Virus genome (UHGV): UHGV-0007119
Direction: 5' to 3' (one strand)
Origin: a virus
DNA: 41,353 nucleotides
Of the stretch, positions 21,733 to 25,795 are shown one piece after another. Each line of letters opens with the position of its first letter. Position 1 is the first letter of the stretch. The notes under the pieces were generated by a model. That model saw only the letters and a program-made list of their open reading frames with translations. It made no database searches and was not told the DNA's origin. A program made the position numbers and the translations under genes.

Positions 21733-22132
21733 GTCTTACCCCCAATAAGGGGATTTGCTCTATTTAATTAGGAATAAGGTCGATTACTGATAGAACAAAT
21801 CCAGGCTACTGTGTTTAGTAATCAGATTTGTTCGTGACCGATATGCACGGGCAAAACGGCAGGAGGTTGTTAGCGCGACCTCCTGCCACCCGCTTTCACG
21901 AAGGTCATGTGTAAAAGGCCGCAGCGTAACTATTACTAATGAATTCAGGACAGACAGTGGCTACGGCTCAGTTTGGGTTGTGCTGTTGCTGGGCGGCGAT
22001 GACGCCTGTACGCATTTGGTGATCCGGTTCTGCTTCCGGTATTCGCTTAATTCAGCACAACGGAAAGAGCACTGGCTAACCAGGCTCGCCGACTCTTCAC
22101 GATTATCGACTCAATGCTCTTACCTGTTGTGC

Positions 22133-22195
22133 AGATATAAAAAATCCCGAAACCGTTATGCAGGCTCTAACTATTACCTGCGAACTGTTTCGGGA
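22133..22195 (-). terminator. tR' terminator (end of the lambda 6S-type short late transcript)
   Basis: Minus strand reads CCCGAAACAGTTCGCAGGTAATAGTTAGAGCCTGCATAACGGTTTCGGGATTTTTTATATCTGC, matching remembered lambda tR'. Confidence 0.7.
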
Positions 22196-22327: not shown

Positions 22328-22819
22328 CTATCCCATACTGGAGAATTCACCATGATATTTTATCCTGGCATTTTCCATTGCCTTTCTCGCCTCCTCGATA
22401 TCGTCAAAACACCCTACATGAATCCTTTTACCATTGACCCTAATTCTTCCAACCCACTTGTTTGCAGCAGAATTAAAAGTCACCCCCTTCACACCAGATG
22501 AATTGTTTTTCCTCATCTTGCTGTTCCATGAGTTTTGAGTGTTAGTAACAACACGAAGATTGGCTATCCGGTTATCAGACCTATCACCATTAATATGGTC
22601 AATCACATCGGTTGGCCAATCATTGTAAACCATCAGCCATGCAATTCTATGGACATATAGCCGCATTCCATAAAGTTTTACCTGCAGATATCCATTTGTT
22701 TTATAGCCAACAACAGCGCCATAAATAAATCTAGAAGACCGAGGTGGATTCTTCCATGTAAGAATTCCAGTATCTGGATTGTAATTAAAAAGTCTCAATG
22801 CATCTTCACGTTTTAACAT
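22328..22819 (-). CDS. HNH homing-type endonuclease with AP2-like DNA-binding domain
   Basis: 163 aa; HNH motif HRIAW…DHINGDRSDNRIANLRVV…QNSWN, then GVKGVTF…NKWVGRIRVNGKRIHVGCFDDIEEARKA (AP2-like); AT-rich; sits inside the pR'-tR' leader. Confidence 0.85.
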   Translation of the reverse strand: MLKREDALRLFNYNPDTGILTWKNPPRSSRFIYGAVVGYKTNGYLQVKLYGMRLYVHRIAWLMVYNDWPTDVIDHINGDRSDNRIANLRVVTNTQNSWNSKMRKNNSSGVKGVTFNSAANKWVGRIRVNGKRIHVGCFDDIEEARKAMENARIKYHGEFSSMG

Positions 22820-23012
22820 AGGCGAACCACATAGATATTAGAGCCTGCTGACATAGAAATATCACCACGAGAGAAGTCGCCAAAAGCGATATTTCTCAGG
22901 CTCTATTCCTATGTGCTCTCGAGTTTATGATGCGCATGTCAGTGCGCTTAGAACTTAAAGATGAGGTGGGTAAAAACTGAAAGAATGTGAACGGATATAA
23001 ATCTGCCATTCT

Positions 23013-23090: not shown

Positions 23091-23714
23091 CTAACGTGTG
23101 ACCGCATTCAAAATGTTGTCTGCGATTGACTCTTCTTTGTGGCATTGCACCACCAGAGCGTCATACAGCGGCTTAACAGTGCGTGACCAGGTGGGTTGGG
23201 TAAGGTTTGGGATTAGCATCGTCACAGCGCGATATGCTGCGCTTGCTGGCATCCTTGAATAGCCGACGCCTTTGCATCTTCCGCACTCTTTCTCGACAAC
23301 TCTCCCCCACAGCTCTGTTTTGGCAATATCAACCGCACGGCCTGTACCATGGCAATCTCTGCATCTTGCCCCCGGCGTCGCGGCACTACGGCAATAATCC
23401 GCATAAGCGAATGTTGCGAGCACTTGCAGTACCTTTGCCTTAGTATTTCCTTCAAGCTTTGCCACACCACGGTATTTCCCCGATACCTTGTGTGCAAATT
23501 GCATCAGATAGTTGATAGCCTTTTGTTTGTCGTTCTGGCTGAGTTCATGCTTACCGCAGAATGCAGCCATTCCGAATCCGGCTTGTGATTGCGCCATCCC
23601 CATAGCAGCCATCACATCAGTACCGGAAAGAGAGTCAGAAGCCGTAGCCCGTGGTGAGTCGCTCATCATTGGGCTTTTTGGCGAATGAAATTTAGCTACG
23701 CTTTCGAGTCTCAT
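23091..23714 (-). CDS. Q: Late-gene antiterminator Q (lambda type)
   Basis: 207 aa MRLESVAKFHSPKSPMMSDSPRATASDSLSGTDVMAAMGMAQSQAGFGMAAF…, matches remembered lambda Q. Confidence 0.95.
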   Translation of the reverse strand: MRLESVAKFHSPKSPMMSDSPRATASDSLSGTDVMAAMGMAQSQAGFGMAAFCGKHELSQNDKQKAINYLMQFAHKVSGKYRGVAKLEGNTKAKVLQVLATFAYADYCRSAATPGARCRDCHGTGRAVDIAKTELWGRVVEKECGRCKGVGYSRMPASAAYRAVTMLIPNLTQPTWSRTVKPLYDALVVQCHKEESIADNILNAVTR

Positions 23715-23899
23715 CGTCTTCCCCTCTTGCCCTGTTTGACCATCAGGACGCCGTTAACTATTACGTGACGTTCGCCTTTGCTGTCTCGGTTGTACTTGAG
23801 CACCGTTCCTCTTGCACAGGAAAGCATCCTCGCCACTTCGGTCTGATTTCCTCGTGTCTGGATAAGAAGCTCTGGTATCGTTTGAATTGTGGCGTTCAT
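23711..23899 (-). CDS. ninH: NinH-like protein
   Basis: 62 aa; …NQTEVARMLSCARGTVLKY…IVNGVLMV… resembles lambda NinH; ATGA overlap with Q. Confidence 0.75.
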   Translation of the reverse strand: MNATIQTIPELLIQTRGNQTEVARMLSCARGTVLKYNRDSKGERHVIVNGVLMVKQGKRGRR

Positions 23900-24258
23900 A
23901 CGTTCTCCAGTTCGGTGATTTTTATTCCAAGCCTTCCGCCTGGTACTTTCACACCACGAATTACGCGAATGTCATCGAATTGCTCGTCGTCTTCCGCAAA
24001 TCCGGCGTGGATAAGTGAGTCGAGTAAACCTTTCAGGATGTTATCGAGGTCGCGGCGGCGGGAGTCTGGAACGTCTGCGATGACTTTGATGCGGAGTCGT
24101 GATTTGGTGAAAATGTCTAACTTGAGTTGGCGGATGATTTGCTGAACGTCTTTTCGGTATTTCTGGCCTTTATCGCTGATGTAGTATTGGCTTCCCCGTC
24201 TTCGCCAGTAGGTGTTCAGCGACGGTGGGTACGGAAGTGTGAATCTGTATTCTGCCAT
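23896..24258 (-). CDS. rusA: Holliday-junction resolvase RusA
   Basis: 120 aa; …PPSLNTYWRRRGSQYYISDKGQKYRKDV… typical of RusA; nin-region position. Confidence 0.85.
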   Translation of the reverse strand: MAEYRFTLPYPPSLNTYWRRRGSQYYISDKGQKYRKDVQQIIRQLKLDIFTKSRLRIKVIADVPDSRRRDLDNILKGLLDSLIHAGFAEDDEQFDDIRVIRGVKVPGGRLGIKITELENV

Positions 24259-24783
24259 TTATCCTCTCCCATGATTATGGTGATAGCCCAATCGTGATTC
24301 CGCCAATTTTCTGGCATTAACGGCTAGAGATATGTCATCGTATAATCCAAGAAATATCTTTTTATTATCACTGTTTATATATGCACCCCACTTTTTATTC
24401 TTCTTATAGTAGGCAACACCAATTACTCCAGAGCGATTATTAATAGGCTTTTTTCTGTTCCTTGAGTTCTGTTTATCATCTACAACGCGCAAATTGCATA
24501 TTCTGTTATCGCTTTTAATTCCATTTATGTGGTCAATTTCCCCATCAGGTTCACTTCCATAAAAGGATATCCATGCGATTCTATGAGCTCGACAAACTTT
24601 TTTATTTACAGATATACGAACGTATCCTTTTTCATCTATAGAACCAGCAATCTTACCGACATATGTTGAATTCCAGCACTCTCTTACACTTTCTCTTCTC
24701 TTGTATATAAACAAACCTGTTTCGCTATTATATTCATACAATTCATTGATTTCTTTTTGTGTTGGATATCTTTTACCGTTCAT
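24259..24783 (-). CDS. HNH homing-type endonuclease with AP2-like domain (paralogue of 22328-22819)
   Basis: 174 aa; HRIAW…DHINGIKSDNRICNLRVV…QNSRN, then GVIGVAYYKKNKKWGAYI…; very AT-rich; abuts the rusA start and overlaps the upstream stop (ATGA). Confidence 0.85.
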   Translation of the reverse strand: MNGKRYPTQKEINELYEYNSETGLFIYKRRESVRECWNSTYVGKIAGSIDEKGYVRISVNKKVCRAHRIAWISFYGSEPDGEIDHINGIKSDNRICNLRVVDDKQNSRNRKKPINNRSGVIGVAYYKKNKKWGAYINSDNKKIFLGLYDDISLAVNARKLAESRLGYHHNHGRG

Positions 24784-25070
24784 GACTTAATCTTCCCCTC
24801 CTTCAGCAGTATCGCCTGCGTCCTGATCACGCCTTCGAGGTGGTAAAGTCTGGCGTCTTTGTTGTCGAGAATCCTTGTGCGTCGGTCGATCTCCGCGTGG
24901 CAGTCACTACAAGCCCATGCACCGATCAGGTCGTCAGGCTTCATTCCCGTTCCGCAAATTCCAGCCATCCTGTAATGTGCCAGAACTGTAGTTTCAGGGT
25001 TGCCATTGCATATGCCGTAAATACGTACCTGGCATGCTCTGCCTCGCGCTTCTTTGCGTAGGTTAGCCAT
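24780..25070 (-). CDS. Cys-rich nin-region protein (YbcO/DUF1364-like, recalled)
   Basis: 96 aa with conserved cysteines (…CQVRIYGICNGNPETTVLAH…CSDCH…); resembles remembered DLP12 YbcO. Confidence 0.6.
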   Translation of the reverse strand: MANLRKEARGRACQVRIYGICNGNPETTVLAHYRMAGICGTGMKPDDLIGAWACSDCHAEIDRRTRILDNKDARLYHLEGVIRTQAILLKEGKIKS

Positions 25071-25795
25071 TAAGCAGCCTCCCCTGTTACTTTCAGCATT
25101 CCGTTATCGAGCAGCTTTCTGGTCAGCCACTGTTGACCACGCCCGGTGATTTTTGTGGTGAACGATATCTGTATTCCGTGATTTGTGTTGACCGCTGTTT
25201 CTTTCACTGTGAAATAGCCGCGATCCATATATTCCTGCATTGGTACATTGCGCCGGGAACCTGAAGCAATAAGGATTTTGTGATCGCGCATCCACGCAAA
25301 CAGTTTGTTTGGACCAATACCAACAACCTTTGCAAAGTTTCCAATCAAAATTCCGCTGGCCTCGCCAACGCGATCGGCAAACTCAACTTTAGGTGCGGCA
25401 ATTGCGAGCTGGTTTTCCAGTTGCATTTTCTGCTCAGCAAGATCAGCAGCAAGGCGCAACGCTTCTGGTAGCGTTTTGGGGATATTAACCGCAGTTTCTT
25501 CAAGCTCTCGCCAACGGTCAACAAGACGAGCGGTGAATTCCGGCGACAATTGGGCGACGACAATAATGCTGTCTCGCTTTCCTTGTTCGCCCTCGAAGAC
25601 GTAGAAATCACGCTCCCCGGTAATAACACCTAAATCATTGATTATGTTAGTGTGCTGCAATGCAGGAGGCTTGATAACGCCACGTTTCACCAATCTATCT
25701 ATGGATACTTTTACATTGCTATGGCGGCTTTCTACCAACTCAGCGATTTCAATGCTTGTCATTTTGATGGCATTGCCATTTATTAACTCATTCAT
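25070..25795 (-). CDS. Rha-family regulatory protein / KilAC-type antirepressor-like protein
   Basis: 241 aa; N-terminal …MTSIEIAELVESRHSNVKVSIDRLV… (Rha-like), C-terminal …FAKVVGIGPNKLFAWMRDHKIL… (KilAC-like); start may be the internal Met at about 25762. Confidence 0.65.
   Translation of the reverse strand: MNELINGNAIKMTSIEIAELVESRHSNVKVSIDRLVKRGVIKPPALQHTNIINDLGVITGERDFYVFEGEQGKRDSIIVVAQLSPEFTARLVDRWRELEETAVNIPKTLPEALRLAADLAEQKMQLENQLAIAAPKVEFADRVGEASGILIGNFAKVVGIGPNKLFAWMRDHKILIASGSRRNVPMQEYMDRGYFTVKETAVNTNHGIQISFTTKITGRGQQWLTRKLLDNGMLKVTGEAA

Follow-up and report, generated by a model that had tools for sequence, protein, structure and literature searches.

How did a nuclease gene come to sit between ybcO and rusA, two genes of a lambdoid nin operon, and does it serve the phage that carries it or its own transmission? 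The gene, HNH-2, lies in the window, by which we mean the whole 41,353-nt stretch of virus genome UHGV-0007119 that was analysed. The window is a P22-like E. coli prophage, with a P22 coat protein, a portal, Terminase_3, a tailspike head-binding domain and a lambda-type integrase, and its minus strand bears the lambdoid nin–Q segment. HNH-2 (24259–24783, minus strand) is a 174-aa ORF, intact and starting with ATG, and is already labelled as an HNH endonuclease in RefSeq and public genomes.

An insert between ybcO and rusA

Read along the minus strand, the segment runs from a roi/antirepressor gene (Roi/ANT, 25070–25795) upstream of ybcO, through the two flanks of HNH-2, to ninH (23711–23899) and the Q antiterminator gene (23091–23714), all assigned by Pfam. 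The upstream flank is ybcO (24780–25070), a DUF1364 putative nuclease gene (Pfam YbcO, 3.3e-43), and the downstream flank is rusA (23896–24258), which encodes a Holliday-junction resolvase (Pfam RusA, 2.4e-16). HNH-2 starts in an ATGA overlap with the ybcO stop codon (24780–24783), and its TAA stop (24259–24261) directly abuts the rusA ATG (24256–24258). In empty alleles the same ATGA combines the ybcO stop and the rusA start, so that the two genes overlap directly. Comparison of occupied with empty alleles defines the insert as exactly 525 bp, coinciding with the ORF, with junctions that are precise to the base; the first 7 nt of HNH-2 (ATGAACG) are also the first 7 nt of rusA in the empty allele. 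The earlier note on this DNA had described the overlapping start and the abutting stop correctly, and had also remarked that the ORF is much more AT-rich than its neighbours, which the GC fractions bear out: 0.345 in HNH-2 versus 0.529 in ybcO and 0.493 in rusA, with 0.463 for the whole window.

The last codons of HNH-2 contain a Shine–Dalgarno-like element, GGGAGAGGA (24262–24270, minus strand), 4 nt upstream of the rusA ATG. Read from the sequence, it is a candidate ribosome-binding site for rusA that would replace the former translational coupling of rusA to ybcO. With the ATGA start context shared and GGGAGAGGA placed before rusA, HNH-2 would take over the coupling that rusA had and supply rusA with a new ribosome-binding site, leaving the nin operon intact. 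No terminator was found inside the insert and no promoter-like site on its coding strand; the sole promoter-like match in the insert is on the opposite strand and within chance expectation.

Domain architecture and known relatives

The HNH (His-Me finger) nuclease domain of HNH-2 spans residues 65–108 (24460–24591, minus strand), as placed by Pfam. Over these residues the match to HNH_3 (PF13392) scores 60.7 bits (E = 1e-16), above the cut-off of 24.8, and the protein matches PHROG 99, ‘HNH endonuclease’, at 1.4e-62. HNH-2 residues D84, H85 and N106 align with D74, H75 and N96 of I-HmuI, which are reportedly, from the 2004 structure paper, the catalytic Asp-His pair and a metal-binding Asn. 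Across 56 HNH-2 homologues, D84, H85 and N109 are invariant and N106 is nearly so.

The C-terminal part, at about residues 118–165 (24289–24432, minus strand), is predicted to be an AP2-type DNA-binding domain with a three-stranded sheet and a helix. Pfam AP2 (PF00847) applied to HNH-2 alone remains below threshold (14.7 bits versus 33.3, E = 0.039), and the paralogue HNH-1, described below, clears that threshold narrowly (33.6 versus 33.3 bits). A profile built from 57 family members and searched against the PDB matches the AP2 structure of WRI1 (5.6e-9), TEM1 (2.2e-5) and I-HmuI (1.3e-6). The AlphaFold2 model of HNH-2, predicted from a 56-sequence alignment with a mean pLDDT of 93.9, places strands at residues 123–126, 131–138 and 141–148 and a helix at 151–165, all with pLDDT of 94–97. 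Searched with Foldseek, the model has I-HmuI (1u3e) as its top PDB match (E = 2.5e-4, probability 1.0), and its C-terminal sheet and helix superpose on the AP2 domains of TEM1 and ERF1 with an r.m.s.d. of 1.2 Å over 46–50 columns. In the predicted structure, HNH-2 has a ββα-metal fold and an AP2 fold homologous to that of plant AP2/ERF proteins. The conserved active-site residues, together with the HNH and AP2 matches, indicate that HNH-2 is an HNH-AP2 enzyme with an apparently competent active site.

I-HmuI, from Bacillus phage SPO1, is, among solved structures, the best match to HNH-2 in both sequence and structure, with the Asp-His…Asn residues aligned, although identity is only about 23% and the global TM score is 0.42, the latter because the domain arrangement differs. 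I-HmuI is intron-encoded and has C-terminal DNA-binding modules different from AP2, whereas HNH-2 is free-standing and has an AP2 domain. I-HmuI nicks one strand, so by analogy HNH-2 may also be a nickase.

Two papers treat HNH-AP2 genes as a recognised class of phage homing endonuclease genes (PMC10448857, PMC2248197). Genes of this class, also called ‘HNN-AP2’ or ‘IPA-HNH’, are placed there in the Xanthomonas phages Xp10, OP1 and Xop411 and in T5, RB43 and ICP1 (Magnani et al. 2004 as cited in PMC10448857; PMC2248197). HNH-2 resembles them in its N-terminal HNH_3 and C-terminal AP2 domains, in its size (about 160–180 aa), AT-richness and free-standing position between phage genes, and in having multiple diverged paralogues per phage group that are present or absent between close relatives. 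It differs from the HNH-AP2 genes of lytic phages in that its host is a temperate lambdoid prophage, and from other HNH-AP2 cases in that a large set of natural alleles defines its empty site, its precise junction and a linked flank patch.

Two other groups of phage nucleases offer comparisons. The free-standing endonucleases of T4-type phages, Seg and MobE, cut a neighbouring conserved gene in an endonuclease-less phage (PMC2790892, PMC2988022). HNH-2 is likewise intergenic between conserved genes. In the T4 model the enzyme cuts a gene beside its own, flanking markers are co-converted and differences in the target protect the carrier, all three of which we infer for HNH-2; the enzymes themselves differ, Seg being of the GIY-YIG type and MobE an HNH protein without AP2. 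The gp74 type of HK97 (PF01844) is, like HNH-2, an HNH nuclease of lambdoid phages, but it belongs to a different Pfam family, lies next to the terminase and is essentially universal in HK97-like phages, whereas HNH-2 is an HNH_3-AP2 protein, sits in the nin operon and is rare. The two coexist as separate genes in loci L001 and L008. We rejected a role for HNH-2 as a terminase-helper HNH: it is about 6 kb away from the terminase, and in L008 a separate PF01844 gene lies beside Terminase_4. Also rejected was membership of a known defence system, as the sole PADLOC match of HNH-2 is a generic ‘homing endonuclease’ model (2e-5); NCBIfam has no model for it. A search of the literature found nothing specific on HNH-2 or on the ybcO/rusA site.

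Occupied and empty junctions

HNH-2 is present in 33 of 5,426 complete E. coli genomes, in one copy each; searches of 50,697 phage records and 72,556 plasmids found no copy. Its flanks are found in 1,339 E. coli genomes. When 40 evenly spaced rows of the 1,346 records were inspected, 27 covered the junction and lacked exactly 525 bp there, from which we estimate about 900 E. coli records with an empty ybcO–rusA junction; the junction is also empty in HK97, HK022, HK620, Gally, mEpX1 and others. Occupancy is thus low, about 3–4% of ybcO–rusA junctions, and HNH-2 always lies at this junction and at no other site. It is a precise insertion polymorphism at one site between conserved genes. A gene universal in related nin regions is rejected by the same comparison of related prophages, most of which have ybcO and rusA directly adjacent.

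The exact 174-aa protein is recorded in 53 blocks of an assembly collection. In all 10 non-redundant places with this protein the order is ybcO–HNH–rusA–ninH and the surrounding modules are variable. The backgrounds of HNH-2 include four replication-module types (O/DnaB, O/IstB and toprim primase among them), two Q families (PF03589 or PF06530) and four terminase types (Terminase_3/Sf6, Terminase_4 with TerL, GpA and Terminase_6). Among 5.8 billion protein clusters, a single 90%-identity cluster holds HNH-2, with 145 members, all from E. coli; beyond it, any match that covers most of the protein has at most 55% identity, and the closest phage relatives are 45–47% identical. Apart from the E. 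coli cluster, only one match exceeds 55%: a fragment of 96 aa from Symbiopectobacterium sp. (P0116), 75% identical over 34% of HNH-2, which hints at relatives in other, barely sampled Enterobacterales.

A base-by-base comparison of 19 occupied and 10 empty loci, with nucleotide diversity (π) in the occupied group calculated from non-identical loci, separates the history of the insert from that of its flanks. In occupied loci π is 0.040 in ybcO, 0.007 in HNH-2, 0.008 in rusA nt 1–45, 0.021 in rusA nt 46–363 and 0.024 in ninH, so that the diversity of HNH-2 is 3–6 times below that of its flanks. Empty loci give 0.041 for ybcO, 0.024 for rusA nt 46–363 and 0.030 for ninH, and divergence between the two groups (0.040, 0.022 and 0.026, respectively) equals the diversity within them. 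The 19 occupied loci fall into at least 14 ybcO haplotypes. In ybcO, occupied and empty alleles are separated by no fixed difference, and even a site 6 nt from the end of the gene segregates in both groups. Judged by these values, the insert is much younger than the surrounding polymorphism and has come to lie on many ybcO and rusA alleles that were already in existence.

All 36 full-length HNH-2 alleles are free of stops and frameshifts, and their variable sites comprise 9 synonymous and 7 non-synonymous changes (pN/pS about 0.19). By this measure the gene is under purifying selection, kept intact though rare and dispensable. A shortened copy was observed in E. coli 1008S19 (NZ_CP147050.1; L004, 2570–3760), where HNH-2 is cut to 279 bp beside IS1A and ybcO and the upstream nin genes are gone; this copy is an example of element decay.

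The insert is linked to a patch of altered sequence at the start of rusA (nt 1–33; 24226–24258, minus strand). Here the 19 occupied and 10 empty loci show 12 fixed differences, at rusA nt 4, 5, 6, 12–15, 18, 19, 21, 27 and 33, and there are no other fixed differences in ybcO, the rest of rusA or ninH. The encoded N terminus of RusA reads MAEYRFT in occupied and MNEYQFV in empty alleles. A pattern drawn from the patch (rusA nt 10–32) matches 24 contigs in IMG/VR: 19 carry HNH-2, every one of them with the exact occupied-type patch, and the other 5 have an MNEYRFT rusA fused directly to roi, without ybcO and without HNH. A patch search of GTDB species-representative genomes, where one E. coli genome probably stands for the species, returned no match. 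Loss of HNH-2 by deletion as the origin of the empty alleles is rejected, as the MAEYRFT patch occurs in no empty allele and HNH diversity is low.

By analogy with the T4-type free-standing endonucleases, the patch at rusA nt 1–33 is a candidate for an altered, cleavage-resistant form of the target. At empty rusA nt 29–35 there is a GCC-box-like motif, CCCGCCG, which reads CCCACCG in occupied alleles; that CCCGCCG is the AP2 target is a speculative suggestion from the sequence. The patch resembles the natural MNEYRFT variant that occurs without HNH, and therefore may be a chance donor sequence and not a selected immunity patch. This variant constitutes a third rusA 5′ haplotype, ATGAATGAGTACAGATTCACG, in which rusA directly follows a roi/KilAC gene without ybcO or HNH (L005, 2207–2610, in FDAARGOS_944; L032, L038, L039, L045 and L052 in IMG/VR). 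It shares more with the HNH-linked patch than with the common empty allele, and may point to the lineage that first received HNH-2.

Taken together, the at least 14 ybcO haplotypes, the low diversity of HNH-2 and the linked tract of rusA nt 1–33/45 fit homing and ordinary recombination alike. Empty alleles, too, show short blocks of shared polymorphism in ybcO.

Paralogues and the spread of the insert

HNH-2 has two paralogues in the same region of lambdoid phages. HNH-1 (22328–22819, minus strand), a 163-aa protein with HNH_3 and AP2 domains, is the pR′-leader endonuclease of which the earlier note took HNH-2 to be a paralogue; the pairwise alignment agrees, with 39% identity over 155 aa and an E value of 1e-30, far beyond chance. 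Its cassette of 677 bp (22329–23005, 40% GC) is inserted about 8 nt past the pR′ transcription start, between the Q-loading region and the remainder of the pR′ leader. The empty allele of this site runs from TAAATTTGACCCAACGATGG directly into GTTAATTCGCTCG, whereas the window runs from TGACTCAAGAATGG into CAGATTT and, at the other end of the insert, from GGGATAGATGG into GTTAATTCGCTCG. A 5-nt (A/G)ATGG repeat flanks both ends, and the −10-like pause element at the site changes from AACGAT to AAGAAT in the occupied allele. From its position, HNH-1 would be transcribed from the pR′ late promoter, which is constitutive in lambda. An 8-nt identity, ATGGCAGA, between the left junction of HNH-1 and the right junction of HNH-2 was dismissed as likely chance. 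In related prophages the pR′ leader holds genes for tRNA-Thr and tRNA-Asn, located between Q and the holin gene (L016, 1962–2117); the corresponding stretch of the window (21977–22136) has no homology to them, which makes the pR′ leader a variable hot spot for inserts.

HNH-3 (WP_001244575.1; 168 aa, 36% GC, 40% identical to HNH-2) sits inside ninF, which it splits into two annotated pieces, in L020 (4168–4674; E. coli MLI121, NZ_CP117016.1) and L029 (2571–3077; Ecol_276). HNH-1 is found in 16 and HNH-3 in 45 of the 5,426 E. coli genomes, and no phage record contains HNH-1. Presence and absence of HNH-1 and HNH-2 occur in all four combinations among prophages. No complete E. coli genome has both in one prophage; the draft assembly L010 has the pair, and its sequence in this region matches that of the window exactly. 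HNH-3 co-occurs with HNH-2 in Ecol_276, MNCRE44 and AMSCJX03.

A recent duplication within one phage is rejected, given paralogues that are only 39–40% identical, sit at separate fixed sites and assort independently. The same three features lead us to regard the copies as old paralogues of differing specificity, each acquired independently. They also bear on the suggestion, made in the earlier note from the two copies in one phage, that an actively spreading free-standing endonuclease gene is at work. The suggestion itself gains from the many phage backgrounds of HNH-2 and its low diversity; the presence of two copies adds nothing to it, as these are 39% identical, occupy fixed sites of their own and assort independently.

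We consider it probable, though well short of secure, that HNH-2 is a free-standing HNH-AP2 homing endonuclease gene targeting the empty ybcO/rusA junction of lambdoid, here P22-like, E. coli prophages. Support comes from the combination of an HNH-AP2 family, foreign composition, a single precise site and a young insert on many flank alleles; in addition, HNH-1 and HNH-3 are insertion polymorphisms at their own fixed sites in the same phage region. Under this mechanism, HNH-2 would be transcribed with the delayed-early pR/nin operon in lytic growth, and its AP2 domain would recognise the uninterrupted ybcO–rusA junction of a co-replicating lambdoid phage or a resident prophage. The HNH domain would nick or cut this empty junction, probably within the first 35–45 nt of rusA, and recombinational repair off occupied genome copies would bring in HNH-2 with the adjoining 33-nt rusA patch, whose 12 substitutions would make the occupied allele resistant to the HNH-2 enzyme.

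Several observations count against homing. Free recombination among lambdoid phages could move a passive insert to many backgrounds via its flanks, the absolute linkage of the patch could just reflect a distance of 33 nt, and the linked patch resembles the natural variant MNEYRFT. Occupancy is low and no sequenced phage isolate carries HNH-2, where a strong driver might be commoner. Much of this would suit a passive cassette that entered a single time through illegitimate or microhomology-mediated recombination, bringing a foreign rusA 5′ end, and was then shuffled among lambdoid phages by ordinary homologous recombination in the conserved ybcO and rusA flanks, its nuclease having no transmission bias and being kept for some other use, such as damaging the DNA of competitor phages or the host. 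The high mosaicism of nin regions, where even in empty alleles the flank polymorphisms form short blocks that assort separately, is in keeping with such an origin, as are the 33 occupied genomes in 5,426 with no phage isolate, and a patch like a pre-existing natural variant. We nevertheless hold a passive cassette to be rather unlikely: members of the HNH-AP2 class behave as site-specific mobile elements in the accounts given of them (PMC10448857, PMC2248197), HNH-2 keeps to a single site, each of the three paralogues is present in some prophages and absent from others at a precise site of its own, and purifying selection (pN/pS 0.19) on a gene that occupies about 3% of junctions is easier to account for if what is selected is the transmission of the gene itself.

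It is improbable, in our judgement, that HNH-2 is a domesticated nuclease that serves the phage with YbcO, RusA and NinB, for example by introducing the breaks from which recombination-dependent replication begins. The gene does lie within a cluster of nuclease and recombination genes, presumably co-transcribed and translationally coupled with them, but it is missing from about 96% of near-identical nin regions, including those of all the well-studied phages (HK97, HK022 and HK620), and so is dispensable; its base composition is foreign (34.5% GC), and it is not of the terminase-associated type, which is represented in L008 by the separate PF01844 HNH next to Terminase_4. The alternative offered in the earlier note, of nucleases co-opted by the phage, draws no support from the rarity or distribution of HNH-2. 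We give very little credence to an inactive remnant, a former homing endonuclease gene that reached its distribution and is now decaying. The truncated copy beside IS1 in 1008S19 and the partial proteins in the HNH-2 cluster, many of which may be contig ends, would be expected of one, but every one of the 36 full-length alleles is intact, with catalytic residues conserved and a pN/pS of 0.19.

Taken alone, HNH-2 leaves current understanding unchanged, its class being known and the gene already annotated as an HNH endonuclease. A wider proposal, which we put forward tentatively and regard as doubtful, is that HNH-2, HNH-1 and HNH-3 (at ybcO/rusA, at about +8 of pR′ and inside ninF, respectively) constitute a guild of site-specific drive elements of lambdoid phages, whose cuts on prophage induction would fall on rival phages and on any resident or cryptic prophage with empty sites. 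If so, they would exclude competitors and create recombination hot spots that make the mosaic joints of lambdoid phages at these gene boundaries. If the homing reading of HNH-2 holds, the locus would provide a tidy natural homing system in genetically easy temperate coliphages, with one defined site, many natural empty alleles including those of HK97, HK022 and HK620, a 33-nt patch that may confer immunity, and sister elements at two other sites. Such a system could be used to learn how free-standing HNH-AP2 endonucleases choose their targets, and what share they have in the mosaicism of prophages and the competition between them.
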